DNA from: a virus
Lineage: Duplodnaviria > Heunggongvirae > Uroviricota > Caudoviricetes
Strand: one strand, 5' to 3'
IMG/VR virus record: IMGVR_UViG_3300048924_000203
Location: 22,232 to 86,231 of that record
DNA length: 64,000 nt
Part shown: one piece after another, positions 18,021 through 56,776 of the stretch
Position numbering within the stretch: position 1 is the stretch's first letter
How the letters are laid out: each line of letters opens with the position of its first letter
Notes under the pieces: generated by a model
The model's database searches: none
Told to the model about the DNA's origin: nothing
What the model saw: the letters and a program-made list of their open reading frames with translations, nothing else
Translations under genes and position numbers: made by a program

Positions 18021-18127
18021 TGCGCAGTTGGGGTAGTTGAAACCCGGCCCGCTTCCAGCGGGAAGCCTCCAGTTCGTTACTGGGACTGCGCTCAAACAGT
18101 AGGGCCTTGGAAGGGGAAGGAGCCCCA

Positions 18128-20367: not shown

Positions 20368-20381
20368 TTTCACGAAATACA

Positions 20382-20464
20382 TTGCATAGCAAGCTGTTTC
20401 ATCATAGGATGAAGGAGTAAGCAAGCGGAAATGAGTCCGCGAGCCTGACGGAATGGAGTCCGAA
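20382..20464 (+). promoter_or_regulatory. Promoter-plus-leader repeat, copy 2: TTGCAT, 17-nt spacer, TAGGAT
   Basis: Homologous to copies 1, 3, 4 and 5. Confidence 0.55.
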
Positions 20465-20740
20465 ATGCCCCGCACCCGCACCTCACGCCCGGCGGTGGAC
20501 CACGCCGCGCGTCAGCAGGTTATTGAGCGTTTCGATGCGCAGCTCGACGCGCACGTCGCACCCCACGACAGCGCCTACCTCGACGGCGTGTACATGCTGA
20601 CCGCCCGCGGCACAGACGGCGAAGTCAAGATGACCGCCCGCAACCTTTCGATCGTTGACACAACCCGCCGGCTCGCGCTGATCTCGGTGACCAACGGTGC
20701 GACCGACGTCACCCTGAGCGTGCAGGAGTCCGCCCGATGA
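20465..20740 (+). CDS. hypothetical protein (alternative start at 20453, MESEM)
   Basis: ORF track 20453..20740; the second ATG lies 6 nt after GGAG. Confidence 0.55.
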   Translation: MPRTRTSRPAVDHAARQQVIERFDAQLDAHVAPHDSAYLDGVYMLTARGTDGEVKMTARNLSIVDTTRRLALISVTNGATDVTLSVQESAR

Positions 20741-26556: not shown

Positions 26557-26593
26557 CGGCTGGCACCAATGCCGCTATGAGCATCGAAACCCA

Positions 26594-26677
26594 TTGCATA
26601 ACAGTGTGTTTCATCATAGGATGATGTTGTCAGCCAGTCGGGATCGAGCCCGTAGGCGAGAGGGAATGGAGTCCCAC
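26594..26677 (+). promoter_or_regulatory. Promoter-plus-leader repeat, copy 3: TTGCAT, 17-nt spacer, TAGGAT; leader stem carries compensatory changes
   Basis: Inner stem CGGG..CCCG with loop AUCGAG replaces GCGGA..UCCGC. Confidence 0.55.
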
Positions 26678-27163
26678 ATGTCCGCAATGATCAGCACCGA
26701 GCAGTCCTCCGACCAGAAGCTGTGCGCAGGGTGCGGCAAGGCGTTCCGCGGCGACCGCGGTTTGAAGTCGCATCAGAATCACCGGAACGCGGCGCCGGAG
26801 TGCCTGCCGCACAACATCATTGAGCCAGATGCCGCGCCGGTCGAGCCGGTGATCGAGGTGGCCGCGGTGCGCGCCGCTCCGGTCTCGCCTGTGGCCGAGG
26901 CCGGCGACCGCGACGAGTTGATCCGAACGGCCCACACGTACGCGTTCGTGCCTGAGTTCCACACGCTGCTTGTCAAGGTCGACGGCCGTGACAAGTGGGC
27001 GATCCGGATGCTCGCCGAGGACGCCTTCGCTATCGCCCGGACGGCCGACAACAGGGTGCTGGTGCGGCGGACGAAGCATGAGAACAGCACCGAGACGACG
27101 GTGACGGATTACTACTGGAACGACGGCCTGCGGGTCCGCATGACCGAGCGGAATGCCGTCTAG
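26678..27163 (+). CDS. protein with C2H2-type zinc finger (alternative start at 26666)
   Basis: CAGCGKAFRGDRGLKSHQNH fits Cx2Cx12Hx3H. Confidence 0.55.
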   Translation: MSAMISTEQSSDQKLCAGCGKAFRGDRGLKSHQNHRNAAPECLPHNIIEPDAAPVEPVIEVAAVRAAPVSPVAEAGDRDELIRTAHTYAFVPEFHTLLVKVDGRDKWAIRMLAEDAFAIARTADNRVLVRRTKHENSTETTVTDYYWNDGLRVRMTERNAV

Positions 27164-28404: not shown

Positions 28405-28431
28405 GGAACCCCAACTACCCGTTGGGGTTCC
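28405..28431 (+). promoter_or_regulatory. perfect 11-bp hairpin GGAACCCCAAC-taccc-GTTGGGGTTCC abutting the ribosome binding site of the XRE gene
   Basis: Inverted repeat 20 nt upstream of the ATG at 28452. Confidence 0.4.
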
Positions 28432-28958: not shown

Positions 28959-29165
28959 ATGAGCACCCACGAGTCAGCACAAGCGACTGACCGCCGGTGG
29001 GCCACAGAATCCGAAACCGCCGAACACGCCCGCGTCAGCAACAACACCATCCGACGCTGGCGAGACCGCGGGCTGATCACCGGATACAGGGTCGGCCGCA
29101 CCGTGCGCTACGACCTCTGCGAGATCGACGAACTGCTCATCTCAGGCGCCGGCGTCGCCCCATGA
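28959..29165 (+). CDS. excisionase/MerR-like helix-turn-helix DNA-binding protein (candidate small terminase partner)
   Basis: Helix-turn-helix segment SETAEHARVSNNTIRRWRDRGLITGYRVGRTVRY; ATGA-coupled to terminase. Confidence 0.6.
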   Translation: MSTHESAQATDRRWATESETAEHARVSNNTIRRWRDRGLITGYRVGRTVRYDLCEIDELLISGAGVAP

Positions 29166-30766
29166 CAGCTGTCGTCCCCGACCAGCTCGAAGCATGGTTC
29201 GACAAGCTGGAGAAGCTGGAAGAGCCGAAACGCACCCAGATGCTGAAATGGGTGAAACAGGAACTGGCGCGCGAAAAGTCGCTCGCCACGCACCGGAACG
29301 CAGCCGAGCTCGCGGCCAGCCTCGACCCCAGCTTCGTGATTACGCCGGCCAACCGTCTGATCGCTGAGGCGATCGAAGAGGCGATCGATACGCGCCGCGG
29401 ACGACTCCTGATTACTTGTCCGCCACAAGAGGGCAAAACGACCTTATCTGCTGTGTATGGCGTGGTCAGGGCGCTGCAGAAGCACCCCGAGTGGCGGGTC
29501 ATGCTGGCCTGCTTCGCATCTGGCCTCGCGGAAGATTCCTCGATCGCCGCCCGTGCCGTCATCTCCAAGCACGGCTCGGATGCCGTGGACCCCCTCACCC
29601 AGATGGACGGCACCGACGAGCTGGGCCTCGCCCTCGCATATGACAAGGCCGCGGCGGCTCAGTGGCGGATTCGCGGCCATCGCGGTGGCCTTGTCGCTGT
29701 CGGTCTCGGCGGAACGATCTCCGGCCGGCCAGCGGACTTGCTGATCATCGACGACCCCATCCGCGGCATGGAAGCGTCAAACTCTCCAACCGTCAAGCGC
29801 CATGTGATCGAGAGCTTCCAAGGTGACCTGACGACCCGACTCGCTGCCGGGGCGCCCGTGATCCTGATCCAAACCCGATGGGCGACAGACGATTTAGCAG
29901 GCTGGATCTTGGACCGTGAGGGCAAACTGCCGACGGAGAAGCGGCGGTGGCGGCACCTCAACATCCCTGCTTTGTCTGAGGAAGGCCTCTACGATTCGCT
30001 CGGCCGCCCTCCTGGTGTGTGGTTGGAGTCGGCGCGTGGCCGCACCACCTCGGACTGGGAAGAGACTCGCGACGACGTTGGCTCCCGTGTGTTCGGCTCC
30101 CTCTATCAGGGTTCGCCGTCCCCGCTTGAGGGCGGCCTGATCAAGAAGCAGTGGCTGGAGGACCACCGACTCACACTCCCGCCCGCCAATCCGGAGTGGA
30201 CTGTGGTCGGTGTGGACCCGTGCGACTCCGGGCACGGTGACGATGCCGGTGTTGTCGCTGCCTCGATAGGCACCGACGGGCGCGTGGCGATGATCGCTGA
30301 CCGGTCCGCTCCCATGACGTCGGATGAGTGGGCGAAGACCGCCGTGAAGCTGGCGATCGAGGTCGGCGCCAGCAAGATCGTCGTCGAATCGTTCGCGACC
30401 CGGGAAACCTACCGGCGGGTGCTCGACGAAGCAGTCACCGATGCCAACCCGCCCCACTCGATCGAGATTGTGCCGTGGCCGCCGATCGGGTCCGGGCGCG
30501 GCGGCGGTGACGCGCTGGCCCGCTCCACGGCACTATTGGCGCAGTTGGAGAACGGAAAAACCCGGCTGGTTGGTCACTTCCCGAAGTGGGAGGAGAAGGC
30601 GACGAGCTGGAATGCGGGCCAGCACCAGCCAGACGGTGTCGCGGCCCTGACCGTCGCACATGACGAGCTGCTCCATGCCGCCGGGCTGGAATGGGATTTC
30701 GCGACGCCGTTCGAGACGCCGCAGGACGACGGCGACATGGGGGACTGGATGCAACGCAACATCTGA
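29162..30766 (+). CDS. terL: terminase large subunit
   Basis: Walker A-like LITCPPQEGKTT; C-terminal nuclease VGVDPCDSGHGDDAG; 534 aa. Confidence 0.85.
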   Translation: MTAVVPDQLEAWFDKLEKLEEPKRTQMLKWVKQELAREKSLATHRNAAELAASLDPSFVITPANRLIAEAIEEAIDTRRGRLLITCPPQEGKTTLSAVYGVVRALQKHPEWRVMLACFASGLAEDSSIAARAVISKHGSDAVDPLTQMDGTDELGLALAYDKAAAAQWRIRGHRGGLVAVGLGGTISGRPADLLIIDDPIRGMEASNSPTVKRHVIESFQGDLTTRLAAGAPVILIQTRWATDDLAGWILDREGKLPTEKRRWRHLNIPALSEEGLYDSLGRPPGVWLESARGRTTSDWEETRDDVGSRVFGSLYQGSPSPLEGGLIKKQWLEDHRLTLPPANPEWTVVGVDPCDSGHGDDAGVVAASIGTDGRVAMIADRSAPMTSDEWAKTAVKLAIEVGASKIVVESFATRETYRRVLDEAVTDANPPHSIEIVPWPPIGSGRGGGDALARSTALLAQLENGKTRLVGHFPKWEEKATSWNAGQHQPDGVAALTVAHDELLHAAGLEWDFATPFETPQDDGDMGDWMQRNI

Positions 30767-30773
30767 CCGTCGC

Positions 30774-30785
30774 GCCCCTTGCATA
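30774..30785 (+). promoter_or_regulatory. GCCCCTTGCATA 12-mer (site C)
   Basis: Third exact copy, directly after the terminase stop. Confidence 0.4.
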
Positions 30786-30829
30786 ACGTTCGTAGCGTGC
30801 CTCCGGATCGTTGGGAACCAGATGCTCAC

Positions 30830-31300
30830 ATGATCGACTCGGTGCTGTCTACGCCGAAGTCATCGTGGAAGATGACGGACCTGTCCGGGCCCGACAGATC
30901 GTGGCTGGTCGCAGGCCTGACGTTGGCTGGTGTGACAGCTCAGGACATCGCCGACCGGCTGTCGTGCTCGCTCCGGTTGGTGCGGACGATTCGCGCGGAG
31001 GACATGACGCAGGTCTGCTACCTGGCGCAGCAGCAGCTCAAGACGATGGGTGATGACCTCCGGCAGGCGGAGCTGACGGAGCGACTGACCAGCCGGGAAC
31101 TCGTCAAGTCGCAGTCCGAGACGGACCGGGTACGGCTGCAGCTCGACCAGGTCATCGACGCTCACATTGCCGGCACGCTGGACACCTTCCCGCGGTGTGG
31201 GCATCCGAAGGTCCCGTACAACGTGTACAAGTCGCAGGGCCGCGAGTACTGCCGGGAATGCCGCCGGGACTGGGACAAGAACCACCGGAAACCGGCGTGA
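30830..31300 (+). CDS. helix-turn-helix plus zinc-ribbon protein
   Basis: ATG in ORF 30779..31300; AGLTLAGVTAQDIADRL and CGHP...CREC motifs. Confidence 0.5.
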   Translation: MIDSVLSTPKSSWKMTDLSGPDRSWLVAGLTLAGVTAQDIADRLSCSLRLVRTIRAEDMTQVCYLAQQQLKTMGDDLRQAELTERLTSRELVKSQSETDRVRLQLDQVIDAHIAGTLDTFPRCGHPKVPYNVYKSQGREYCRECRRDWDKNHRKPA

Positions 31301-31326
31301 AGCATGGGCGCGGTCAATGAAATCAA

Positions 31327-31409
31327 TTGCCCTGCAACAGATTTCGGCATAGGATGAATTGGTAGGCAAGCGGAAACAAGTCCGCATGTTCAACGGAAGA
31401 AAGTCCGAA
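31327..31409 (+). promoter_or_regulatory. Promoter-plus-leader repeat, copy 4: TTGCCC, 17-nt spacer, TAGGAT
   Basis: Homologous leader GCAAGCGGAAACAAGTCCGC. Confidence 0.5.
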
Positions 31410-31508
31410 ATGCCCACAGCACCACATACCCACTTACGAGTGGCGTTCAACGCGCGACATTCGGGACCCACCGCAATTCAGGCGGGCGATGAACCGGAAC
31501 GGTGGTGA
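31410..31508 (+). CDS. leader-encoded small ORF (32 aa)
   Basis: ATG at the conserved repeat position. Confidence 0.3.
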   Translation: MPTAPHTHLRVAFNARHSGPTAIQAGDEPERW

Positions 31509-31565
31509 TCAGGCAGACCTCTGACCTCTGTAAACGACCCGAAATTTGAAGAAGGAGACATACCT

Positions 31566-32495
31566 ATGTGGTTAATCGTCTGGACCGTCATCGTCGGTCT
31601 GGTGTTGCTGGCGGCCATCGTGATTGGCGCCATCGCAACCGTGCTGTCAGTAAGGGAACGAGAACCGTTATGGGAGGCAATCGGAACCGCCGTCGGTGTG
31701 GGGCTGATCGGACTCATCATGCTGGTGTTCTCCTCCGCCACCGTGGTGCCAACCCGGGACTACGGCGTGGTGACCAAGTTCGGCCGCCCGGTGGGTACGT
31801 TGCCCAACGGACTGCATTGGGTCGCGCCATGGGAATCCGTCGAGTCGATGGATGGCGCCATTCAGATCGACTGGCACCGGGACACCGACAACAACAAGGA
31901 CACCCACGGCGACGCCATCCAGGTGCGCCTCGGTAACCAGTCCAATGCCTACCTGGACACCTCGGTGCGCTGGGAGATGAAGCAGGACGCAGCCGACGAT
32001 CTATACCTCCAGTACCGGTCATTCGACGCGGTGCGGACCAACCTCATCACGCGGAACTTGCAGACCGCGCTCAACGAGGTGTTCGCGCATTACAACCCGC
32101 TGGCCACCGTCGTCGCAGCTGATCCGAACTTGCCGGCGGACAAGGTCCAGACCGACACCCTTATCTCGCTGGCGGCAAAGGCCACCGAAATCATGAAGTC
32201 CAAGGTCGGTGACCAGGTGACGATCTTTGAGATCCAGATTCCGACCATCGCGTTCGACGAGGAAACGCAGCACAAGATCGACCAGCTCAACCAGCAGAAG
32301 GCTGCCACGGCGGTCGCGGTCGAACAGCAGAAGACCAACGTCGAGCAGTCCAAGGCCAACAACGACCTGGTCGCTTCAGTGAAGGATCCGAACGTGCTGG
32401 TCTCCAAGTGCCTGGATATCGTCCGGGATAAGGGCGGAAGCCCACTCGGATGCTGGCCAGGTGCGGGGGTTGTGCCCACCATCCCCACGAAGTAA
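31566..32495 (+). CDS. SPFH/band-7 (stomatin/HflC-like) membrane protein
   Basis: N-terminal membrane helix plus VVPTRDYGVVTKFGRPVGTLPNGLHWVAPW; ribosome binding site GAAGGAGA. Confidence 0.8.
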   Translation: MWLIVWTVIVGLVLLAAIVIGAIATVLSVREREPLWEAIGTAVGVGLIGLIMLVFSSATVVPTRDYGVVTKFGRPVGTLPNGLHWVAPWESVESMDGAIQIDWHRDTDNNKDTHGDAIQVRLGNQSNAYLDTSVRWEMKQDAADDLYLQYRSFDAVRTNLITRNLQTALNEVFAHYNPLATVVAADPNLPADKVQTDTLISLAAKATEIMKSKVGDQVTIFEIQIPTIAFDEETQHKIDQLNQQKAATAVAVEQQKTNVEQSKANNDLVASVKDPNVLVSKCLDIVRDKGGSPLGCWPGAGVVPTIPTK

Positions 32496-32512
32496 CGCCT
32501 GAGCACGAAGAA

Positions 32513-32545
32513 GGCCCCGCACTCATCTAGTGCGGGGCCTTTCTC
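32513..32545 (+). terminator. rho-independent terminator GGCCCCGCAC..GTGCGGGGCC followed by TTTCT
   Basis: Perfect 10-bp stem plus T-tract after the SPFH gene. Confidence 0.7.
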
Positions 32546-32702
32546 TGTATCTCGGTCGACAGGCCTCTGTCCTGGCCTTCCGTTACCGAGTAACGGAAGT
32601 TCGTCGCGCCTGCTGCATAGGCTTCCCCACGTGGACAGGACGGGCTACGCCGCGCAGGCTCCGGATTACACCGAAAAACATGCGTTGAACTGCATAAACA
32701 TC

Positions 32703-32785
32703 TTGATTAGCACATCTAATTGTCATAGGATGAAGGAGTAAGCAAGCGGAACTGAGTCCGCGAGCCTGACGGAATGGAGTCCGAA
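32703..32785 (+). promoter_or_regulatory. Promoter-plus-leader repeat, copy 5: TTGATT, 17-nt spacer, TAGGAT
   Basis: Leader nearly identical to copy 2. Confidence 0.55.
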
Positions 32786-33106
32786 ATGCCCACCAGCAAC
32801 CACCGACGCGCCTCGGCGCACGCCATCCTCGCCGCCGGCATCGTCATCGGCGCCGCTCTCGGCATCCCCACCGGTGCCATCGTCTCGGCCACATCCGCCA
32901 TCGCCGCCCCGACCGTGACCGAGGACAGCCCCGCGTGGGACTGCATCTTCGACGGGAACCGCATCTGCGGGCCCGGCAACCCTCAGGGCGTGGCCGCCGG
33001 CTGCTACAACGACCGGGGCGCGCTGGTCGCGCCGTGGCCCTGCCATCTGGTCGTCAACCCCGACGGCAGCGCCGACGTCTACACCGGCTCGGCGGTCACC
33101 CGATGA
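32786..33106 (+). CDS. secreted/membrane-anchored Cys-rich small protein (alternative start at 32774)
   Basis: N-terminal hydrophobic signal-like segment; 5 Cys. Confidence 0.55.
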   Translation: MPTSNHRRASAHAILAAGIVIGAALGIPTGAIVSATSAIAAPTVTEDSPAWDCIFDGNRICGPGNPQGVAAGCYNDRGALVAPWPCHLVVNPDGSADVYTGSAVTR

Positions 33107-33402
33107 GCGACCTGAGCAACGTCACCATCGACGGCGTTCCCCAGACCTGGCGGCAGCTCTACGAACGCGAGCACGCGGCCTGTATGCGACTGGAGGACTA
33201 CCGGCGAATGCTCACCGACCTGTCGCGTAACGAGCATGGCCGACATGAGGGCGATATCGACGGCGCGAGCCCATCGCAGGGAAACCCACATCTCAGGACC
33301 GGGGACGTGATCGGCTACGCGATCGGCGGGGCATTCAAGTACGTCGTGCCCGCCCCGGAGCTGCGCGGCGACATCGCGGCGTGGAAGGTGCGGAACCAGT
33401 GA
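33103..33402 (+). CDS. hypothetical protein
   Basis: ATGA-overlap start. Confidence 0.45.
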   Translation: MSDLSNVTIDGVPQTWRQLYEREHAACMRLEDYRRMLTDLSRNEHGRHEGDIDGASPSQGNPHLRTGDVIGYAIGGAFKYVVPAPELRGDIAAWKVRNQ

Positions 33403-33506
33403 CCGCGCCGCCTCGCCGCCGGTTCCGTGACACGCTGTGGCCGCCGGCCATCGTGCTGGTCGTCCTGTGGGCGTTGATCGGCCTCTTGATCTGGTGGCTG
33501 CTATGA
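33399..33506 (+). CDS. small membrane protein (35 aa)
   Basis: GTGA start; hydrophobic. Confidence 0.3.
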   Translation: MTAPPRRRFRDTLWPPAIVLVVLWALIGLLIWWLL

Positions 33507-33790
33507 CCGGCATCGACCGGCAGTCCGCCTACGCGCTCCGGGCCGCCGAGGGCTTTCTCGCCTCGATGAACTACTACGGGCAGGCCTACGTACCCGTGGC
33601 TGCCGTCGGTGGGCCCGCGACACCGACCTACTACCGGAACATGCTCAGCAGGGCCGTTCACGCGCTCGGCGACTACGCCGCATTGTCCGAAGTATCAGCC
33701 GCGGCCACCGCTCGCGACGGGCACGCGTTCTACGCCTGGAACGTCTACGCCGAAGCTGTGATCGCACGATACGGAGGTACTACCCCATGA
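33503..33790 (+). CDS. hypothetical protein
   Basis: ATGA-overlap start. Confidence 0.45.
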   Translation: MTGIDRQSAYALRAAEGFLASMNYYGQAYVPVAAVGGPATPTYYRNMLSRAVHALGDYAALSEVSAAATARDGHAFYAWNVYAEAVIARYGGTTP

Positions 33791-34059
33791 AGCACGACAT
33801 CGACCACAGCGGCCACCACTGGCCGATCCTCGGCGGTCGTGGCATCCCGTGCGTGCTCGTCGAGGCCGACCAGGAGATGACTGGCGGCTGGGTCGTGACG
33901 GCCGGCGAGAAGTTCCCCGTCACGGTGTTGGTGCGCCCGGTGGGCACGCTGGAGTTGGCTCCCGACACCGCGGCTCTGCTGTCCGGCCTGTTCTCGGCCG
34001 ATTACGTCGACGATCTGCTGCACGCGTTGGAGCAGGCGAGGAGGATCGCGGAGTCATGA
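33787..34059 (+). CDS. hypothetical protein
   Basis: ORF track. Confidence 0.45.
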   Translation: MKHDIDHSGHHWPILGGRGIPCVLVEADQEMTGGWVVTAGEKFPVTVLVRPVGTLELAPDTAALLSGLFSADYVDDLLHALEQARRIAES

Positions 34060-34424
34060 GCGCGACGAGCATCGACGCGACCCTCGATTGGCAGGTGGGC
34101 GACCCGGAAGCGCGCGTATGGCGAGCACGTCAGCCGTATTGGGCTGAACACCGCGATGGTGATGGCGTGTACATCGTCACCCGGACGGAAGCGCGGACGG
34201 TGACCGTCCTCGGCGAGCACCTGGACGATCCGTCGGTGTGGCGCGTGTCCTGGCACGCCCGGTCGAGAGACATGGACGCCGTCGTGATGCCTCTCGACCT
34301 GGCTACGCATACGGACCTGGAACTGGTGAAGGCCGCCGCGGCCGCGCACCACGCGGTCGGAAGGCGCGCGAATGCGTGGGCCCGATATATGCGTGAGAAC
34401 GATCCTCCGGAGGTAACCCGATGA
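34056..34424 (+). CDS. hypothetical protein
   Basis: ATGA-overlap start. Confidence 0.45.
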   Translation: MSATSIDATLDWQVGDPEARVWRARQPYWAEHRDGDGVYIVTRTEARTVTVLGEHLDDPSVWRVSWHARSRDMDAVVMPLDLATHTDLELVKAAAAAHHAVGRRANAWARYMRENDPPEVTR

Positions 34425-34900
34425 GCCATATTCGAGATATCAAACTGGTTGGGCACTGCCCGATCTGCGGCGAGTCCACCCTCTACGCCAAGCCAGGCGG
34501 CCTGATCCACTGCGCCAACGCTGAGTGCGCGAACCGCGTCGCCGTGACTGCGATCCTCGGAGAACACGAGACCGAGCACATCGTCACCCTGAACGACGAC
34601 GCCATGACCTGGGTGTTCAACAAGGAGACCGGATACGACGAGCAGGTAAGCCCCGGCGTGTTCTACGGCAGCTTCACCATCCGCCATCCGCTGCGGGAAC
34701 GCGTCGAGCTGGCTGACCTCGCAGACTGCACGCTGCACCCGCGGCTCTCGCGCAACCATCCCGGCGAGGCCGGAACTTACCGGGTGACGCCGACGAGCCG
34801 GGTCCACAACGCCGACCCAGATCCGGACGATCCGCTGGCCGAGTTGGGCCCGAAGCGCGGCGACACCGTCCACGACTGGACCTGGGAAAGGATCGCGTAG
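34421..34900 (+). CDS. hypothetical protein (zinc-ribbon-like)
   Basis: ORF track; CPICG...CANAEC. Confidence 0.5.
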   Translation: MSHIRDIKLVGHCPICGESTLYAKPGGLIHCANAECANRVAVTAILGEHETEHIVTLNDDAMTWVFNKETGYDEQVSPGVFYGSFTIRHPLRERVELADLADCTLHPRLSRNHPGEAGTYRVTPTSRVHNADPDPDDPLAELGPKRGDTVHDWTWERIA

Positions 34901-35016
34901 TGGACGTTCTTGGCGGGCTCATCGCTGCGGCTTTCGGGCTGTTGCTGTCGGTCGTGCTCACGATGGGCGTCGGCTGGCTACTTGGGATGGCTCTCGATCA
35001 GTGGGCTAACAAGTGA
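34900..35016 (+). CDS. small membrane protein (38 aa)
   Basis: GTG start overlapping TAG; hydrophobic. Confidence 0.3.
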   Translation: MDVLGGLIAAAFGLLLSVVLTMGVGWLLGMALDQWANK

Positions 35017-35312
35017 CCGATGCAACGATGACTCGCAGTGAGCGGCGTGAACGTCAGGACGCCGAGACCAAAGCCTTCCTGGAGACCGCGTACGCGAATC
35101 CTGGCGTGTGGTTCAAAGTGCCGCTCCACCTCGGTGTAGTGCCCATCTCCGCCGTGAATCTCGCGCCTGATGGCAGCCGCGTGGAAATCACCGCGGCCCT
35201 GGACCTGTCGGTGTTCGATTTCTACCGTGAGGGCGGCCTTGGCGAGTATGGCCAGGTCTGGGCGCGCCGCAAGAAGCGGCCATTCGACCTCCCGCCGGAG
35301 GGACGCGACTGA
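35013..35312 (+). CDS. hypothetical protein
   Basis: ORF track. Confidence 0.45.
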   Translation: MTDATMTRSERRERQDAETKAFLETAYANPGVWFKVPLHLGVVPISAVNLAPDGSRVEITAALDLSVFDFYREGGLGEYGQVWARRKKRPFDLPPEGRD

Positions 35313-35422
35313 TGGACACCGTGATCCTCGTGCTGTTGGCGCTCGGCGTGCCGGTTGGCGTGGTCCTGTTGGCGTGGCGGTGGGTTTTCACCTCCGATGA
35401 CGAGGGCAACGACGATGCTTGA
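35312..35422 (+). CDS. small membrane protein (36 aa)
   Basis: TGATG start; hydrophobic. Confidence 0.3.
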   Translation: MDTVILVLLALGVPVGVVLLAWRWVFTSDDEGNDDA

Positions 35423-35786
35423 CCCGGACAACCCGAACCTTTGCCTCGGGCATGGACACGTGTTCCCCCGCCCTGACGGTGCGAAGGCGCGGTGCGGTGG
35501 CCCGGCGTTATGCGCTGACTGTCGCCGTGATCAGGCCAAGGCGGATGCGGGCACCACTCACCGGCTGACGGCACAGCAGATCACCCAGCGCAAGGCGGCG
35601 ATGGAAGCCCATCCCGACGAACCGGCGCGGTGGCGCCCATGGCTCGACGACGCGAGCGACGATCTATTTCCCGAGACCGCTATCCCGCCGCTCGGCACCC
35701 CCGGCAACGACGCCACTGCCGTCACGGTGACCGCCAACATGCGAATCCCGCTGCACACGAACGATCCACCGGAGGTAACCCTGTGA
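35415..35786 (+). CDS. hypothetical protein
   Basis: ATG in ORF 35355..35786. Confidence 0.4.
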   Translation: MLDPDNPNLCLGHGHVFPRPDGAKARCGGPALCADCRRDQAKADAGTTHRLTAQQITQRKAAMEAHPDEPARWRPWLDDASDDLFPETAIPPLGTPGNDATAVTVTANMRIPLHTNDPPEVTL

Positions 35787-36268
35787 GCACCTACGCGGCC
35801 GACACCACTGTCAGCAGCGAGAAGTCGCGTGGCGAGATCGAACGGACGCTCAGCCGATATGGGGCGAAGTCGTTCATGTACGGCTACGACGAAACGCACG
35901 CGATGATCCAGTTCGACACCCAGAACCGCCGGGTGCGGTTCGTACTGCCCATGCCCGACCGGAACGCGGCTGAGTTCGTTATGTCGGGCCACACGCCGCC
36001 GCGGCGACGGACGCCGGCCCAGACCGCCGAGGCGTACGAGAAAGCGGTCCGCCAACGCTGGCGCGCCCTGGCCCTGGTGATCAAGGCGAAGCTGGAGGCC
36101 ATCGAGTCCGGAATCTCCACGTTCGACGTCGAGTTCATGGCTCAGCTGGTGATGCCCGACGGTCGGACCGTCGCTGAGGACGTCGTGCCGAAGATAGTTG
36201 CTGCGTACGAGAACCACCGGATGCCGGCACTACTCCCGGCCTACTCGACGAAGGCGATCGAGGCATGA
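35783..36268 (+). CDS. hypothetical protein
   Basis: GTGA-overlap start. Confidence 0.45.
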   Translation: MSTYAADTTVSSEKSRGEIERTLSRYGAKSFMYGYDETHAMIQFDTQNRRVRFVLPMPDRNAAEFVMSGHTPPRRRTPAQTAEAYEKAVRQRWRALALVIKAKLEAIESGISTFDVEFMAQLVMPDGRTVAEDVVPKIVAAYENHRMPALLPAYSTKAIEA

Positions 36269-36438
36269 GCAACACGACACGCGATGCCCAGGCGCTGAAG
36301 GACCTCAAGGAAGCGCAGCGGCTACTGGTCGCAGTCAAGGGCCAGTTCCTCAACGACCATCCCGCCTACACCCTGCTCACAGTGGCGATCAACGACGCCT
36401 ACGAGGCGGAGCGCGCGATTCAGGGGTGGTGGCCATGA
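36265..36438 (+). CDS. hypothetical small protein
   Basis: ATGA overlaps at both ends. Confidence 0.35.
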   Translation: MSNTTRDAQALKDLKEAQRLLVAVKGQFLNDHPAYTLLTVAINDAYEAERAIQGWWP

Positions 36439-36626
36439 GCCGGATCCGGCCTCACACGTGTGGCGACCCCGGACCGTATGACGCTCACTGCACCGACGAT
36501 CCGGGGCACCGCTACTCGTGCTACGACGGCGGCGATGACGTGTCGTTCAACCGTCGGCAGGACTTCCGCCACGACTGCGATGACCCTTCGTGCGACCGAC
36601 AGCACTTCACCAACGAGGGAGATTGA
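36435..36626 (+). CDS. Cys/Asp-rich hypothetical protein
   Basis: ATGA-overlap start. Confidence 0.4.
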   Translation: MSRIRPHTCGDPGPYDAHCTDDPGHRYSCYDGGDDVSFNRRQDFRHDCDDPSCDRQHFTNEGD

Positions 36627-36628
36627 CC

Positions 36629-36793
36629 ATGGCCGGCTCTTCGCGTGTGCAGTGGCCCCAGAGCGTGTACAACGCCTACGTCCAGTTCGGTCCGCGTCCG
36701 CGGTGGCTGCTGAAGCTCATCGCCCGACCGTTCGTTCGCGTAGTGCCTGACGACGAGATGTTGCCGAAGAAGGTGGCCGCTGATGATCGCTAA
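36629..36793 (+). CDS. hypothetical small protein
   Basis: Ribosome binding site GAGGGAG. Confidence 0.35.
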   Translation: MAGSSRVQWPQSVYNAYVQFGPRPRWLLKLIARPFVRVVPDDEMLPKKVAADDR

Positions 36794-37325
36794 CCTGGCT
36801 GGCCAGTCCGTCCCAGACGATGGGGTGAACCCGCCGCCGGTCCGCATCGTGGAGGACACCGCAATTCATGGTGGTCGTGAGCTCAGGTGCTACGTCGGCA
36901 CCACCACGATCGCGACGGCCACGCTGCTCCCCGCGTCGACAGGCTTCGGCAATGGCCGGTGGTCAGTGCTGCCCCACCCAGCGATGGAGCGGCTCGCCGG
37001 TACGCGGGCGGCCTCGTCGGTGGTGCTCGACGAAGACGACGCCCGCCAGGCACTTGGCTTCCTCGCCGGCCTCTACCTAGCTGGTGCTCCAGACATTCCG
37101 CGTCTGCACGCACTCGGCTCGTACGCATCTAGCCAGGGCGTTGTGTACAGCTTCCCGGCTGGCGCTCTCCCTGAAGGAGTCCGTCATGCTCGTCAGCTAA
37201 TCGGCCAGCAGGTGCTGATCGACGGCCTCCGATTCACGGTCCGTGGTGTCGAACACTGGGCGATCGTCTGCCCGCGTGACGGGGCACGGTGCGAGCATCC
37301 GTTCGGCTTGTTGGTCGAGTCATGA
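36783..37325 (+). CDS. hypothetical protein
   Basis: ORF track. Confidence 0.5.
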   Translation: MIANLAGQSVPDDGVNPPPVRIVEDTAIHGGRELRCYVGTTTIATATLLPASTGFGNGRWSVLPHPAMERLAGTRAASSVVLDEDDARQALGFLAGLYLAGAPDIPRLHALGSYASSQGVVYSFPAGALPEGVRHARQLIGQQVLIDGLRFTVRGVEHWAIVCPRDGARCEHPFGLLVES

Positions 37326-37381
37326 GCACGTACGTGTACCTGGAATACGGCGTGCGCCATCCGGTTGAGGAGGAATCGTGA
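37322..37381 (+). CDS. possible 19-aa bridging micro-ORF
   Basis: ATGA/GTGA overlaps only. Confidence 0.2.
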   Translation: MSTYVYLEYGVRHPVEEES

Positions 37382-37968
37382 GCGGGACGGAGCCACGCAT
37401 GGTGCGCGCTGTTCAGGGCTGGCGGTGGATGCCCGGACATTCGCACGTGCAGCAGTCGTTCATCGTGCGTGCCCCGGAGGCCGAGCTGGAGGCGGAGCTG
37501 GCGCGGCAGTGTGCGGCGACTGCAGCTCTGCCTGGTTTGTTGCCGACGCCGTCGATCATCGAGCTACCGGCAGAGGCTCTGTCCGATGACGCTCCCGCAC
37601 CGTCCCTGGTCGATGTGCTGCTGGCGCACCTGGTCCCGTATGGAGGCCACGGAGTACACGTGACGTGCGAATGTGGCTGGGAGACCGGCACTGACGACCT
37701 CCGGGACTGGTGGGTCAAGCACGCTGAGCACGTCGCCCAGGAGGCGAAAGCAGCCGGCCTGATGGTGCTGCCCGCGCCGCGCTCCGACGTCATGGACCGG
37801 GTGATAGCTGAGGTGGCGAGGATCGACGGCCGCGATGAGCCGTTCTGTGTGGACTGCCACGACCGGGAGGTTGGCGTCGACGCGACGCTTGTCACTGAGT
37901 TGGTCGCCGAGGTCGCGCAGTTGCGGGCCGAGCAGGAGCGTGCGATGGCTGAAGGGGACTGGGCATGA
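37378..37968 (+). CDS. hypothetical protein
   Basis: ORF track. Confidence 0.5.
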   Translation: MSGTEPRMVRAVQGWRWMPGHSHVQQSFIVRAPEAELEAELARQCAATAALPGLLPTPSIIELPAEALSDDAPAPSLVDVLLAHLVPYGGHGVHVTCECGWETGTDDLRDWWVKHAEHVAQEAKAAGLMVLPAPRSDVMDRVIAEVARIDGRDEPFCVDCHDREVGVDATLVTELVAEVAQLRAEQERAMAEGDWA

Positions 37969-38282
37969 GTGAGGGGGCGGACTCGCCGCGTATGCGGGAG
38001 TATGACGATCCTTCGGGCCTGCTGGAGGTCGATACAACTGACGCCAATGAAGTGTCGTTCGGCATGGCTGACCGGTTGGGCGACCAGGCTGGCATGCGGC
38101 TCGGCCGGGACGTGGTCGCTGCCTTGCACGCCCAGCTCGGCGAGTGGCTTCGCGTCGACCCGCCGATTGGCAATGTCCCCTGCCCAACCTGCGGCGAATA
38201 CGACCCATACGACTGCACATGCCCAGATCGGCAACGGTCAGCGGGTCGACACGACCACCGAGCGCAGGAAGGTGGTGAGTGA
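37965..38282 (+). CDS. hypothetical protein
   Basis: ORF track. Confidence 0.45.
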   Translation: MSEGADSPRMREYDDPSGLLEVDTTDANEVSFGMADRLGDQAGMRLGRDVVAALHAQLGEWLRVDPPIGNVPCPTCGEYDPYDCTCPDRQRSAGRHDHRAQEGGE

Positions 38283-38575
38283 TGGTCGAGTGGGCGTGGT
38301 GGTTGGGCCTGACCGTACTGAGCGTGGCGGTGGTGCTGGCGCTGGCGCCCCGTCGCGCGAAGCCTCCAGTTGCTCTCGGCCTGGTCGTCGATCGCTACAG
38401 AGTGGCAATCACGGTGGATGGCCGGCGGGTCGCTGAGACGTCCTGCGCGGTCGGGGATGGCGACCTTGTGCGACTGGTTCCGATCCCAGGCGAGCAGTGC
38501 TGGCGGTACGTCGCGATGGTTGGTGATGCACCGGTACTGGAGTGGGCTGACACAGGCGGGCTGGTGCGGCGATGA
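38279..38575 (+). CDS. membrane-anchored hypothetical protein
   Basis: ORF track; N-terminal membrane helix. Confidence 0.45.
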   Translation: MMVEWAWWLGLTVLSVAVVLALAPRRAKPPVALGLVVDRYRVAITVDGRRVAETSCAVGDGDLVRLVPIPGEQCWRYVAMVGDAPVLEWADTGGLVRR

Positions 38576-38868
38576 GTGCGAACGGCGACGAGGTCTACGC
38601 GCTCGCGTCTGTCCTGGGCCACGAACCGGAATGCTGCACCAAACGAGAAGAGGGCGATGGGGAATGCACGCCAGACTGGCCCGACTGCTCACTGTGGGAG
38701 ACGGCCAGCTTGATTCTGCGGTCGAGCAACCTGAATGAGTTGTTGGCGATGGCGTGGCAGCGTGGATTTGAGGCGTGCCAGCAGCGGACAGCCAACGAGC
38801 TACTGGCTCTGTTGCCGCAGGTACGGGATACGACCAACCCGTTTTCCGGTGAGGAGTTGTCGTCATGA
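38572..38868 (+). CDS. hypothetical protein
   Basis: ORF track. Confidence 0.45.
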   Translation: MSANGDEVYALASVLGHEPECCTKREEGDGECTPDWPDCSLWETASLILRSSNLNELLAMAWQRGFEACQQRTANELLALLPQVRDTTNPFSGEELSS

Positions 38869-39554
38869 CCGAGCTGGTGTGCACCTGCCCAACGAATGAC
38901 CAGGGGGTGCGTGTGTCGATCGATCCGGCGTGCCGTCGGCATCCGGGGCACAAGGGCATCGGGTCGCCGGATTGCTGGTGCCTTCAGGATGGGCTGATCG
39001 GCCGATTGGCGACGGCTATGGATTGCCCGCAGCACGGGCGTCCACGCGGAGCGTCACCGATGCCTCGGTACGCGACTGGCGGGCTGATCAGTCCGCGGCC
39101 GGACGATGGCAGCCTGCTGGTTGATCTGTCGCCGGGATACATGCTGCCGGCGGACTATGCGGCCGCGTTGGGTATCGGGTCGGACTTGATGGCGATGCCG
39201 AACGACCACGGCGGCCCGGGTGCGTCCAAACCGGATATGGATTTCTCCAGCCAGGCCCATGCCGAAGCGGAGGCGCGGTGTCGGGCGGAGTTCGCGGAGC
39301 GTGAGTCGAAGGCCCGCGCGTGGCTGCGTGAGCGAGTGCAGGCCGCGTTGATCGACGAGCTGAAACGGCAGACCGCTGCCTATCCGGGTTTCACGGCACA
39401 GACAACGACGCAGCCGAATCTGTTCGTGGTAGACGGCATCTTGTCGGTGGACGAGTTGGCCAGCGCGACGGTCGACGTGTTCCTGGCGATGCTGTCCGAT
39501 CCGCCGGCGATGGTGACTGATCAGGATGGTGTGACTCGGGTGGAACAGCGCTGA
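38865..39554 (+). CDS. hypothetical protein
   Basis: ORF track. Confidence 0.5.
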   Translation: MTELVCTCPTNDQGVRVSIDPACRRHPGHKGIGSPDCWCLQDGLIGRLATAMDCPQHGRPRGASPMPRYATGGLISPRPDDGSLLVDLSPGYMLPADYAAALGIGSDLMAMPNDHGGPGASKPDMDFSSQAHAEAEARCRAEFAERESKARAWLRERVQAALIDELKRQTAAYPGFTAQTTTQPNLFVVDGILSVDELASATVDVFLAMLSDPPAMVTDQDGVTRVEQR

Positions 39555-39856
39555 TGCCTGGCCGCTCGGTCGCGCTGGCGAAGGGTCCGGCGTTGTCGTT
39601 ACACCGGACGTATGTAGCCGAGTGCGCTGATGGTGCCCGAGCGGAGTTCTTTGATGATCTGGCCGGCGCGAAGGCCTGGATTCGGGTGCACGGCGGGACG
39701 ATCCGGTACGGCAATCACGCCGGCGCTCCCGCACGTTGTGATGAGCCGCATTGGTGCCAGGGCTGCGATGAAGTGGTTCATGGCACGTGGATGGCGTGGC
39801 GTGATGGGTTGTGGCGGTGCGCTGAGTGCCGTGGCGTGTGGAAAGCGGTTGTGTAA
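39554..39856 (+). CDS. Cys-rich hypothetical protein
   Basis: ORF track. Confidence 0.45.
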   Translation: MPGRSVALAKGPALSLHRTYVAECADGARAEFFDDLAGAKAWIRVHGGTIRYGNHAGAPARCDEPHWCQGCDEVVHGTWMAWRDGLWRCAECRGVWKAVV

Positions 39857-40188
39857 TGGACGAATTGGATAATCCGGAGGGCCAGGGGTCATACGGGATG
39901 GTGATGCCGTTCGTGACTGTCGCATCGAAGGGTGGACCGCACGACGACGAGTCGTACGCGGCGGGCTTTGAGATGGGTGGTCTGGACGCGACGTTGAAGG
40001 CCTTGGCCCCGTTCACGGCGTTGGTGCGGATGCCGGTGACGATCCGCAGCGTCAATCGTGAGCAGGCGGATTTGATCGCGATGAAGCACGGGTTCACGAT
40101 CGACGATGTGATGTGGACGGACGAGTCGGGGCCCGATGGCTGGGATGTGATTGTCGTCCGCCGCGATGTGGCCGGGGGAGACGAATGA
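39856..40188 (+). CDS. hypothetical protein
   Basis: ATG overlapping TAA in ORF 39826..40188. Confidence 0.45.
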   Translation: MDELDNPEGQGSYGMVMPFVTVASKGGPHDDESYAAGFEMGGLDATLKALAPFTALVRMPVTIRSVNREQADLIAMKHGFTIDDVMWTDESGPDGWDVIVVRRDVAGGDE

Positions 40189-40832
40189 TGAGCGTTTTCG
40201 ACGATGGTGGCCCTGTGACGGGCGCGGGTCCGATCCCTGCGTCGACGGGTGCGCCGGATGCGCGGTTGACCGACGAGCAGCGCGCGGTGTTGTCCGCTTA
40301 TGCGGAGGCGCTGGGCGCGGATGCTGTCCTTGATCGCGAGTACACCGATGAGCAATTGGAGAGCAGCCCGTACGCCGAGATGATGTCCGAAGCTGTACCC
40401 GTTGGTCAGGACGAATACCGCGGCCGACCTGCCGACGGCGGTCCGTCTTCGTTCTCTGCTGGTGGTGTGGTTGTCGGCGGCGTTCGAGTTTCGTACTTGA
40501 GCGGACAGCCGGATGTGCATCTCGCTGAGTCCCAGAGGCAAGCGTTGGTGGGCGAGGCCCAGGAGCAGCTCGACGAGCCGGTCCTGGCGTGCCCGACGTG
40601 CTGGCGCAGTCACGGCTGTGACCTCCCCGCCGGCCATCCTGGCGACGACTACAGCCATGTGTGCGATCCGTGCCCGGATGGCTGTTCAGAGCCGGACCTT
40701 GAAGACTGGCCAGATGGTTGGTCGGCATCGGTGGGCCGCTGTTCGGTGCATTGCGGTGATCATCCGATCAGTGGCGACCGGCTGTTCGACGTGACGCGCG
40801 CGGGTTCGACGAACGAGCGTGTGCTGCCGTGA
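40185..40832 (+). CDS. Cys-rich hypothetical protein
   Basis: ATGATG start. Confidence 0.45.
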   Translation: MMSVFDDGGPVTGAGPIPASTGAPDARLTDEQRAVLSAYAEALGADAVLDREYTDEQLESSPYAEMMSEAVPVGQDEYRGRPADGGPSSFSAGGVVVGGVRVSYLSGQPDVHLAESQRQALVGEAQEQLDEPVLACPTCWRSHGCDLPAGHPGDDYSHVCDPCPDGCSEPDLEDWPDGWSASVGRCSVHCGDHPISGDRLFDVTRAGSTNERVLP

Positions 40833-41089
40833 CGGCGCGGGACGATCTGGCTGAGCGTGTGCGGACGGGTGTGCTGTCTCCGGAGCAGGCTGCTGCGGTG
40901 CGTGCGTCGCTGGAGGCTTCGGGCGCGAGGATGCGGGCGGCTGCGCAGGCGTTCGCTGAGGCAGCGCGGCCGGGGCTGGTGGAGTTCGAGCAGCGGGTGA
41001 ATGACCTGATGGAGGCGGCGCGGCGGTCGCTGCAGGGCCAGAGTGAACCGATTCCGATCCCCTGGGGTGTTGTGCCGGTTACGGTTTGA
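40829..41089 (+). CDS. hypothetical protein
   Basis: ORF track. Confidence 0.4.
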   Translation: MTARDDLAERVRTGVLSPEQAAAVRASLEASGARMRAAAQAFAEAARPGLVEFEQRVNDLMEAARRSLQGQSEPIPIPWGVVPVTV

Positions 41090-41705
41090 CGGTGTCGTCA
41101 GATCGGCGGCCGGGGTGAATCGGGGAGGTTGGGCATGGCCGAGATTGCGGAGGCGACGGACGCGGCGCGTGAGGCGTTGTTGAGGAGGATCGCGAATCTT
41201 GCGCCGCAGTTGAGTGCTGCTGCGGGTGTGCGGGATTTGGCGCAGGCGTTTGCGTTGACGGTTGGTGCGATGCCGGGTCGGTTGCCGGGTGCGTTGGGTG
41301 AGGTGAAGGTCTCGAATTAGGGCGCTGCTGCCGCTGCTGCGGGCTTGTCGGGTCGGTGGTGGTGATGTCGTCGGCGAGGAGCCAGAGCTGCATCGTCACG
41401 GTGGATTTGTCGTTGCCGCTGCGGGCCTCCAACTCCACTACGGCCAACCATGTTCCGTCGTCGCGTAGCAGCCAGGCTGATTGGTGCGCGGGCATCCAGG
41501 GTTCGAGGTGGAGGCCTCCGGCTTTGGCCCACATGGGGATCTGGTCGCGGCGCAGTGGGCCGCGCGGGAATGCTCGGGCGGTGTTGATCCAGACGGGTCT
41601 GTCGACGTGATGGAGGGTGCGGTAGCCGAGCAACTCGCGAGCCCAGTTGTCGAACATGTGTGCGAGTCTGTCAGGTCTGCGCTGGGTTGACCAGGCCAGG
41701 GCCAA
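41079..41705 (-). CDS. reverse-strand hypothetical protein; C-terminal 90 aa are low-complexity and overlap 41129..41320
   Basis: Long reverse-strand ORF with a plausible globular N-terminal 115 aa. Confidence 0.4.
   Translation of the reverse strand: MALAWSTQRRPDRLAHMFDNWARELLGYRTLHHVDRPVWINTARAFPRGPLRRDQIPMWAKAGGLHLEPWMPAHQSAWLLRDDGTWLAVVELEARSGNDKSTVTMQLWLLADDITTTDPTSPQQRQQRPNSRPSPHPTHPATDPASHQPSTQTPAPNPAHPQQHSTAAQDSRSSSTTPHAPRPSPPQSRPCPTSPIHPGRRSDDTVKP
41129..41320 (+). CDS. hypothetical protein; overlaps a reverse-strand ORF
   Basis: Ribosome binding site GGGGAGG; T/G-ending codons with many TTG. Confidence 0.3.
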   Translation: MGMAEIAEATDAAREALLRRIANLAPQLSAAAGVRDLAQAFALTVGAMPGRLPGALGEVKVSN

Positions 41706-41765
41706 TGAAAACCGGCCCTTACCCCTCGGTGGATGGAATCCGTTGAGGGGCAGCGGGGCCGGTGT

Positions 41766-42089
41766 TTATGCGCCTGAGACTACACCCGGATCCAGCGGCG
41801 CCAGCTTGATCGGATCGCCGACCACCGCGCCGGCCTCTTCCCTCGTCGGCCAGAACAGCTCAGGGCTGCCGGTCTCGTCCAAGTACATGATCCAGGTCGT
41901 GCCGTCGTCCCTGGTGCCTTCGATGTATCCGGCGTAGCCACTCTCCGCGGGGACGGGGTAGCGGCCGATCTCGACTCGTTGCATTGGAATGCCCTTCTCG
42001 TGGTGGATGCGGTGGTTGCGCCCCACCTGGGCACGGGATGAACGGTAGCAGCGCCCCGTGACACGAATCTGTCGTCGCAGGTCTTGCAT
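41766..42089 (-). CDS. reverse-strand hypothetical protein
   Basis: ORF track. Confidence 0.45.
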   Translation of the reverse strand: MQDLRRQIRVTGRCYRSSRAQVGRNHRIHHEKGIPMQRVEIGRYPVPAESGYAGYIEGTRDDGTTWIMYLDETGSPELFWPTREEAGAVVGDPIKLAPLDPGVVSGA

Positions 42090-42134
42090 AACCTCACGGG
42101 GTATGGCCTTGGAACCTGGTAGGTGCGTAGCGCG

Positions 42135-43700: not shown

Positions 43701-43752
43701 TGGCCCGCACGGCGCCGCTGCTCGACCCAGGCATCGCATCGCAGGTCGACTG

Positions 43753-43998
43753 ATGCCCAGGCGCGAGTTGCACACGTACGAGTACGTCTGCGACGGCTAC
43801 CTGCGGCACGACGGCAAGAAATGCACCAGCCGCAAGGTGGTCTCGGCCTATGACGCCAACGCCGCCGACGCGGCGATAACCGAGCCAACGCTGGATTCGG
43901 CCGAGTTGCTCGTCACTGGCCGTTGGGGATGGGCGTTCACGCGGCATGGTTGGTTGTGCCACCTCCCACACCGCGACGATCCGCGAGTACGCGACTGA
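43753..43998 (+). CDS. hypothetical protein
   Basis: TGATG start. Confidence 0.4.
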   Translation: MPRRELHTYEYVCDGYLRHDGKKCTSRKVVSAYDANAADAAITEPTLDSAELLVTGRWGWAFTRHGWLCHLPHRDDPRVRD

Positions 43999-44563: not shown

Positions 44564-44603
44564 GCGGCATGGGGGCGCACCCTCCGCTCATAACGTCCAG
44601 TCC

Positions 44604-56724: not shown

Positions 56725-56738
56725 GCCCGAGCACACGA

Positions 56739-56769: not shown

Positions 56770-56776
56770 TCGTGCG

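Follow-up and report, generated by a model that had tools for sequence, protein, structure and literature searches.

Whether a tailed phage may carry a membrane-protein gene of the SPFH/band-7 family as a transcription unit of its own, and what the product of such a unit would do in the infected cell, is the question raised by positions 31327–32545 of a 64,000-nucleotide stretch of viral DNA (IMG/VR record IMGVR_UViG_3300048924_000203, Caudoviricetes, record positions 22,232–86,231; the whole stretch is referred to as the window). Judged from sequence similarity, the phage is a large uncultured relative of the Cluster W mycobacteriophages, of which Taptic served as the main reference. A sequence-only reading had described at this locus a promoter-and-leader repeat, a 32-aa leader open reading frame (ORF), a 309-aa SPFH-domain protein and a strong rho-independent terminator, taken together as a self-contained unit, and every element so described was found in its place. 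The favoured reading, given a probability of about one half, is that of a single-gene SPFH cassette with its own promoter-leader and terminator, the product of which would corral or shield a host membrane protein. Gene identity and the 3′ end of the unit have good support; as regards promoter activity, timing, topology and target, the reading is presumptive. The gene family itself is known and annotated in hundreds of related phages, and the cassette is one further member of it.

Family, architecture and proposed topology of the SPFH protein

The gene (31566–32495, + strand) encodes an SPFH/band-7-like membrane protein of 309 aa and is preceded by its own Shine–Dalgarno sequence, AAGGAG (31552–31557, + strand, 8 nt before the ATG; read from the sequence). 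The family call of the sequence-only reading was borne out by profile searches: Pfam Band_7 (PF01145) matched residues 60–257 with E = 1.9e-19 and 70.9 bits (cutoff 23.6), and the PHROG match was phrog_200 (E = 1.1e-51). Homologues were detected by tblastn in 368 phage records, mostly annotated as band-7-like membrane protein, and 357 of these cover at least 80% of the protein. Identities were 61% for Cluster C (Bxz1 group), 53% for Mycobacteroides abscessus prophages, 42–48% for Rhodococcus, Gordonia, Cluster M and Cluster R phages, and 25–29% for Streptomyces phages. A large protein database yielded 217 homologues at E ≤ 1e-10, among which phages and genomes of Mycobacteroides, Mycolicibacterium, Mycobacterium and Gordonia were named. 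An identical protein is encoded on a 108,881-bp JGI (Joint Genome Institute) contig and on a Logan contig, with identical DNA over the compared part.

Two uncharged hydrophobic stretches were assigned as transmembrane (TM) helices, TM1 at residues 2–27 and TM2 at about 37–59. Alignment of 32 members gave a common plan of a short uncharged N-tail, TM1, a variable charged loop, TM2, the SPFH domain, a long helix and an invariant tail with the motif DPNVLVSKCLD...CWP, in which C282, C296, W297 and P298 are unchanged in all 32. C282 and C296 are the only cysteines of the window protein, and in the eight members checked the invariant pair is the sole one outside the membrane anchor. Full-length homology and the plan of two TM helices, SPFH domain, long helix and C...CWP tail are shared with the other members of the actinophage band-7-like family (Bxz1/Drazdys gp29, Send513 gp78, prophiGD25-1 gp15; PHROG 200). 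A 'lipoprotein' label attached to this family in RefSeq and PHROG 200 (e.g. NC_029044.1, NC_011272.1) was considered and rejected for the window protein, which has neither an N-terminal cysteine nor a lipobox; no cysteine occurs in the N-terminal ~50 residues of any of the eight members checked, and the label looks wrong for the family.

The AlphaFold2 model, computed for the monomer only, reached a predicted local distance difference test score of 82.9 and placed helices at residues 2–31 and 35–56, followed by the SPFH sheet and a long helix at 232–272. The best structural match by Foldseek was HflC (7vhq_G, E = 2.5e-12 over 273 columns), with erlin, stomatin, HflK, prohibitin, QmcA, flotillin and major vault protein next (E from ~1e-11 to 1e-7). 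When the family profile was run against solved structures, HflC was the only SPFH protein detected, and weakly (E = 0.0076), with TM2 and the start of the SPFH domain aligned to the TM helix and SPFH start of HflC; phmmer against the PDB gave no match. Since solved full-length SPFH proteins all form such assemblies, the product, by analogy, is most likely to build a ring or cage attached to the membrane.

Lysine or arginine is absent from the N-tail in all 32 members. This uncharged tail, the charged loop after TM1 and the invariant cysteine pair together suggest an N-out/C-out topology that would place the SPFH domain on the outer side, where HflK/C have theirs.

The 3′ boundary

An intrinsic terminator follows the gene at 32511–32550 (+ strand; hairpin 32511–32541), its stem beginning 16 nt past the SPFH stop codon and reading AAGGCCCCGCACT-CATCT-AGTGCGGGGCCTT, then TCTCTGTAT. 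The GC-rich stem is perfect over 11–13 bp with a 5-nt loop and folds at −24.7 kcal/mol, which makes it stronger than the 10-bp stem initially described. The z-score of the fold was −6.2, and none of 200 shuffles folded as well. The tail TTTCTCTGT, overlapped by the last two stem bases, holds 6 T in 9 nt. Given GAAGAA upstream of the stem, the terminator looks bidirectional.

Perfect inverted repeats of at least 9 bp were found at seven places in the 64-kb window (2669, 28405, 32511, 32577, 56734, 60355 and 62863), and only the one at 32511 has a T-rich tail. According to Czyz et al. (in mBio, 2014), mycobacterial RNA polymerase reportedly requires a U-tract at intrinsic terminators. Because of this requirement and the single T-rich tail, the SPFH terminator is the one canonical terminator of the window, so that the earlier description of it as the only clear terminator holds for canonical ones; the other six hairpins may also terminate transcription. 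A search of 31250–32850 against Rfam returned only sub-threshold matches to the terminator hairpin, and the region past the SPFH stop codon matched only generic GC hairpins of other actinophages (E ≥ 0.05).

A second hairpin with a perfect 10-bp stem (CTTCCGTTAC-CGA-GTAACGGAAG, then TTCGTC; 32577–32599, + strand) is a possible back-up terminator, and no perfect hairpin occurs between 32.6 and 56.7 kb. Elsewhere in the window, perfect GC-rich hairpins without T tails stand directly 3′ of the major tail protein gene (60355–60383, 13 bp) and of a DUF932 gene (28405–28431, 11 bp); these two are likely U-tract-less terminators or RNA-stabilising stems. A perfect 17-bp hairpin (56734–56774) lies between convergent genes, before a minus-strand gene for 749 aa (56777–59026, phrog_33734) that sits within the otherwise plus-strand head/tail region.

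The repeat element and its leader

About 200 nt upstream of the SPFH gene lies copy 4 (31311–31419) of a repeat that is present five times in the window, the others being at 1612–1720, 20366–20474, 26578–26687 and 32687–32795. The copies were located by nhmmer with a profile built from the copies themselves (E = 4e-27 to 8e-32), and the chance expectation of the 28-nt core pattern in the window is 0.00. Every copy lies between genes and supplies the start codon of an ORF. The order of parts is constant: a palindrome GAAA-N4-TTGCA-N-TGCAA-N4-TTTC over the −35 hexamer, the hexamers TTGCxx and TAGGAT separated by a 17-nt spacer, a leader of ~50 nt with two CGGA-N6-TCCG hairpins, and the start codon. 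The loop of the second leader hairpin carries a Shine–Dalgarno GGAG.

The promoter-like core of copy 4 spans 31327–31355 (+ strand) with the −35 hexamer TTGCCC at 31327–31332, a 17-nt spacer and the −10 hexamer TAGGAT at 31350–31355, which fits the mycobacterial TANNNT form. Its palindrome is imperfect (GAAATCAATTGC-CCT-GCAACAGATTTC, 31319–31345, + strand) and overlaps the −35 hexamer. Leader hairpin 1 reads GCGGA-AACAAG-TCCGC (31370–31385, + strand) and leader hairpin 2 CGGA-AGAAAG-TCCG (31394–31407, + strand), in which the Shine–Dalgarno is weakened to GAAAG as against GGAG in the other copies.

The element was found by BLAST in 11 of 11 Cluster W records. A profile search of Taptic gave five or six copies at 53.6–60.1 kb, before gene starts (in L003 numbering: 41591–41702, 42204–42315, 42955–43065, 45927–46038, 46910–47022 and 48030–48140), and the Taptic copy at 60030 retains the leader alone. 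Hexamers and spacing are kept in ten copies, five from Taptic and the full five of the window; TTGCxx-N17-TAGGWT occurs at fixed spacing in 10 of 11 copies across two phages that are ~20–35% diverged in the element. On the strength of this conservation and of the consensus, copy 4 is a putative promoter, and the earlier description of it as promoter plus leader stands for the copy and its conserved layout, with promoter activity as a prediction.

Over 11 aligned copies the leader structure pairs in 83.5% of cells, compared with 33–50% when the partners were slid by 1–3 columns. For leader hairpin 1 the figure is 100%, and in three of its five pairs both partners have changed. The Taptic genome contains the two stem variants, CGGA/TCCG and CCGG/CCGG, which speaks more for a structure in the RNA than for an operator bound by one DNA-binding protein. 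Beyond the two small hairpins, the predicted untranslated region (31362–31590) has no unusual structure, and a riboswitch-like reading was dropped because the whole region folds at z = +0.40.

Folded as RNA, the palindrome reaches −20 to −24 kcal/mol in four of six Taptic copies (the remaining pair fold at −7.6 and −10.5), and in these four the strong hairpin is trailed by a T-containing tail; the Taptic hairpins look like terminators of the preceding unit. In the window copies the palindrome is weak (−1.8 to −8.9 kcal/mol), having decayed relative to Taptic.

Between the leaders of copy 5 (32747–32791) and copy 2 (20426–20470) identity is 98%, and copy 4 reaches 63–76% with them; a recent duplication of, or conversion from, the right-arm copy is the apparent origin of copy 5. 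Copy 5 forms the next promoter-leader (32687–32795, + strand), before a gene for 106 aa (32786–33106). The 106-aa protein has an RR-containing N-terminal signal- or TM-like segment and four cysteines, matches phrog_1148 without a Pfam match, and showed no homology to Taptic gp4.

Neither the promoter pattern nor the leader pattern was matched in viral contigs. The leader pattern gave one match in bacterial genomes, which had no other similarity and was rejected as chance. No description of the composite repeat element turned up in searches.

The 32-codon ORF

The conserved start codon of copy 4 opens an ORF of 32 codons (ATG at 31410 to TGA at 31508, + strand), which confirms the leader ORF of the sequence-only reading as an ORF and leaves it without a coding signature. 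Its GC content at third codon positions (GC3) is 0.56, against a mean of 0.847 (standard deviation 0.097) for 32-codon windows from 28 genes, 1.5% of which are as low. A homology search with the ORF and spacer (31416–31570) gave no match. The start codons of the other four copies open ORFs of ~90–180 aa, and the similarity between copies 4 and 5 fades about six codons past the ATG. The ORF is best read as the fossil stump of a gene start normally borne by the repeat, not as a conserved peptide; it is probably translated. From the SPFH gene it is separated by 57 nt.

Proposed mode of action

Under the favoured reading, the RNA polymerase of the host with its primary sigma factor would start at copy 4, at TAGGAT+7. 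The transcript would comprise the structured leader, the fossil 32-codon ORF, 57 nt with a separate strong Shine–Dalgarno, and the SPFH gene. Ribosomes would load at the start codon of the repeat, translate 32 codons and stop, and the SPFH gene would be translated from its own Shine–Dalgarno. Transcription would end at the GC-stem/U-tract terminator, which would also halt read-through from the terminase and gp3-like genes, and copy 5, 150 nt further on, would restart it into the 106-aa gene and the genes beyond. With a hairpin at its 5′ end and a strong one at its 3′ end, so short an mRNA would be stable, which would be fitting for a protein of which each assembly requires many copies.

The two N-terminal TM helices would anchor the protein, and a ring or cage would form on the outer face of the membrane. 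As a best guess, this cage would corral or shield a host membrane protein or complex during infection and so preserve or re-program a membrane function. Among the functions considered, such corralling is ranked first, at less than even odds, superinfection exclusion comes second and is unlikely, and general membrane stabilisation is third. The FtsH protease is the precedent for a corralled target. The host-membrane remodelling or phage exclusion suggested in the sequence-only reading are guesses.

In Drazdys, prophiGD25-1, Send513 and the context L012 the SPFH gene has early or replication genes around it, a placement that fits a role during infection, not lysis. Many short units sharing a host-type promoter, as in the Taptic right arm, have the look of early genes; against assigning the cassette to an early class, copy 5 could feed head genes too.

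An extended version, improbable as a whole, is that actinobacteriophages carry their own outward-facing, HflK/C-like SPFH cage, disulfide-stabilised and expressed from a portable promoter-gene-terminator module, which encloses a host inner-membrane machine. If this were true, the target of the cage could be FtsH or a complex serving phage DNA entry, and host membrane proteolysis would be frozen or superinfection blocked. Such a cage would amount to a new class of host-takeover or exclusion device and to a first function for the widespread phage SPFH genes.

Single-gene unit or read-through

Several results weigh against the favoured reading. Of the 12 hexamer positions, 8 agree with the E. coli consensus, and a generic sigma-70 scan made no call. 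No terminator precedes the unit, so the SPFH gene is possibly expressed largely by read-through, and the repeat element could be mainly a translation or stability leader. The closest homologue (75% identity, contig Ga0153956_1001256, here L007) lies in an operon in which the next gene overlaps its stop codon, with neither repeat nor terminator; the cassette form is therefore not required for function, and the SPFH gene predates the transcription signals that it now has. No conserved partner gene emerged when the neighbours in seven contexts were compared all against all by BLASTP. As to the product, identity to any solved SPFH protein is 8–17%, and no NCBIfam family matched at E ≤ 0.01, HflK and HflC models included, from which it follows that the protein is not an HflK or HflC orthologue. 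The residues following TM2 are also positively charged, which leaves the topology argument indirect, and no FtsH-specific link was found.

The term self-contained in the sequence-only reading accordingly fits the 3′ end, which is closed by the terminator, and not the 5′ side, which is open: the palindrome of copy 4 folds at −8.5 kcal/mol, as against −20 to −24 kcal/mol in Taptic. An alternative view is that there is no independent unit at all. The repeat would then be a translation-initiation or mRNA-stability leader, the SPFH gene would be read through from the terminase and gp3-like genes, and the hairpin behind it would stabilise the 3′ end or act as an attenuator. This view agrees with the concentration of conservation and covariation in the leader hairpins, Shine–Dalgarno and ATG of the repeat, with the leader-only Taptic copy at 60030, with the moderate consensus match of the hexamers and with the missing upstream terminator. 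It does not account for the fixed spacing of the hexamers in 10 of 11 copies from two phages. Nor does it explain the strong terminator-like hairpin before the element in four of six Taptic copies, an arrangement that would be senseless unless transcription restarted there. The SPFH hairpin, moreover, has a canonical U-rich tail and is followed by the next promoter copy within 150 nt. That there is no independent unit is considered unlikely.

Comparison with morons and other known systems

The morons of lambdoid phages, associated with Hendrix and colleagues, are said to be promoter-gene-terminator inserts in late operons. Like them, the cassette consists of one gene equipped with a promoter-like element and a terminator, and it sits in the packaging/head region; it could be a defence or superinfection-exclusion gene of this type, an independently expressed add-on whose membrane product blocks the DNA entry or growth of competitors. 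Such a product might be made even with the surrounding packaging genes silent. The layout, placed between genes that lie close together in Taptic, speaks for it. So does a homologue (61% identity) in a Mycolicibacterium fortuitum prophage, which belongs to a small opposite-strand gene group near the integrase; integrase-adjacent positions are a common site of prophage-expressed genes. Homologues are also common in Mycobacteroides abscessus prophages.

On the other side, the promoter belongs to the repeat family of the phage itself and is not foreign, and the GC3 of the SPFH gene (0.83) lies within the 0.85 ± 0.10 of the genome (overall GC of the gene is 61%, lowered at codon positions 1 and 2), so that there is no compositional sign of recent import. 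A prophage state is not evident: the examined parts of the window and the Taptic annotation show neither an integrase nor an immunity repressor. The PADLOC defence models gave no match to the protein at E ≤ 0.01. Homologues are mostly found in lytic phages, within early operons, and even the gene of prophiGD25-1 is part of a lytic RecET/replication operon. As for placement between genes that adjoin in related phages, the picture is mixed: the flanking gp3 and gp5 homologues are one gene apart in Taptic and 13.1 kb apart here, the whole island being the insert, and L007 has its SPFH gene at the same place. A moron-type defence or exclusion gene is regarded as unlikely.

A role as a lysis-timing or envelope-disruption accessory, e.g. 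as a holin modulator or membrane-fusion helper, would suit a membrane protein with a probably outward-facing domain and the mild cytotoxicity of a phage Band-7-like protein described below, and is nevertheless very improbable, because LysA and holin homologues are absent from the window, the lysis cassette lies >30 kb off by synteny with Taptic, and the gene never adjoins lysis genes in the other phage contexts examined.

The window gene differs from its relatives in standing alone between a repeat-family promoter and a terminator, at the head of an island that separates terminase and portal, whereas in the other phages examined it is packed in early/replication operons. Among cellular proteins, E. 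coli HflK/HflC, which form a cage enclosing FtsH (7vhq, 7wi3, 9cz2), provide the best structural match and share the succession of TM helix, SPFH domain and long helix as well as the outward orientation proposed for the window protein. Identity to them is 13–15%, and they are encoded by a K/C gene pair instead of a single gene; the window protein, unlike HflK/HflC, has an extra N-terminal TM helix and the family-specific cysteine pair. Stomatin/QmcA-NfeD, erlins, prohibitins and flotillins share the superfamily fold and the cage-forming architecture. Unlike stomatin/QmcA operons, the window gene has no NfeD neighbour (no match among the flanking genes), and flotillin-type repeats are absent.

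SPFH genes recur in many large phages (Bxz1-like, Streptomyces, T4-like, Schitoviridae). Those of the T4-like phages 44RR, Aeh1 and RB43 had been noted by 2006 (PMC1524935), and a 2026 paper on a Schitoviridae phage with an SPFH gene calls the reason for its presence unclear (PMC13239085). The Band-7-like gp49 of LeBron was mildly cytotoxic when overexpressed in a systematic screen (PMC13148394), and a full-text literature search found no functional study of a phage SPFH protein, this cytotoxicity being the sole data point. As a compact unit with predicted start and stop signals, the cassette is experimentally convenient for clean deletion or transfer. It also shows a phage lineage re-using one promoter-leader for new transcription units in the packaging/head region. 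The most interesting by-products of the analysis are the terminator-promoter-leader element common with Cluster W and the canonical terminator between the terminase and portal genes.

Genomic setting and the accessory island

The GC content of the window is 65.3%, and nearly all convincing ORFs are on the + strand. The terminase (28997–30766) is 77% identical at the protein level to those of the Cluster W mycobacteriophages Taptic, Jeon, D12 and PR, and the DNA of the capsid region is ~81% identical to the same phages; apart from this region, the phage was matched at the protein level only, and nothing among phages was matched by a megablast of 30700–33200. In Taptic the syntenic counterparts of the terminase, gp3-like, DUF1360 and portal genes are gp2, gp3, gp5 and gp6. 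A tRNA-Gly(tcc) (18022–18093) followed by a DAM-like/GNAT gene has its counterpart at 51.2–52.6 kb of Taptic, and the window from 18 to 29 kb therefore corresponds to the Taptic right arm and from 29 kb onward to the left arm. Genes for portal, MuF/protease fusion, major capsid, major tail and head-tail adaptor lie downstream at 45–63 kb.

A helix-turn-helix/zinc-ribbon gp3-like gene (30779–31300, 65% identity to Taptic gp3) lies between terminase and cassette. The distance from the terminase, previously given as about 650 bp, is 561 bp from its stop (30766) to the start of the copy 4 unit and 800 bp to the SPFH ORF. The remoteness from lysis genes stood up: a tblastn search of the window with LysA and holin of Taptic found no homologue, which is consistent with the claim.

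Between the end of the gp3 homologue and the gp5 homologue (DUF1360, 44445–45008, 47% identity) extend 13.1 kb (31300–44445), where Taptic has a single 315-bp gene. This island begins with the SPFH cassette and continues with copy 5, ~25 small genes and a BCS1-like AAA ATPase. The ATPase (42123–43700, 525 aa) has a BCS1 N-terminal domain (Pfam AAA E = 1.7e-16, BCS1_N E = 3.7e-7); a membrane-translocase-type ATPase seems unusual for a phage. The SPFH terminator (32511–32541) now lies between the terminase (28997–30766) and the portal (45018–47033) and head genes, and the head genes would therefore have to be transcribed from copy 5, from an unrecognised promoter or by antitermination.

L007 carries its SPFH gene in the equivalent island of another relative, otherwise different, in the order terminase, gp3-like gene (69%), ..., SPFH, ..., DUF1360 and a 941-aa ORF at the portal position. 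When viral and metagenome data were scanned for relatives with the same cassette, only L007 was returned, and it lacks the upstream ORF and the terminator. No terminator was found after the SPFH gene in the two contexts inspected, L010 and L012. The neighbours of the window gene had no Band_7 match, and thus no other SPFH gene stands beside it. A DUF732 protein is encoded in the same small gene group as the SPFH gene in two unrelated contexts, L010 (6861–7190) and L012 (5358–5972), and in L012 the SPFH gene lies directly downstream of it; BLASTP found no similarity between the two DUF732 proteins, and the link is possibly coincidence.

Three DNA methyltransferase-type genes are present in the window, a C5-cytosine type (439–1455), a D12-class N6-adenine type (5343–6416) and the DAM-like/GNAT fusion (18107–19459), which suggests heavy investment against restriction. 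Direct repeats of ~80% identity were found at 45687–45763/50545–50621 and at 50693–50918/51664–51793. The MuF/protease fusion ORF (47938–51366) and the next ORF (51408–52400, 330 aa) both match phrog_21406 and are linked by direct repeats, and the 330-aa ORF has the look of a partly duplicated C-terminal portion of the fusion protein.

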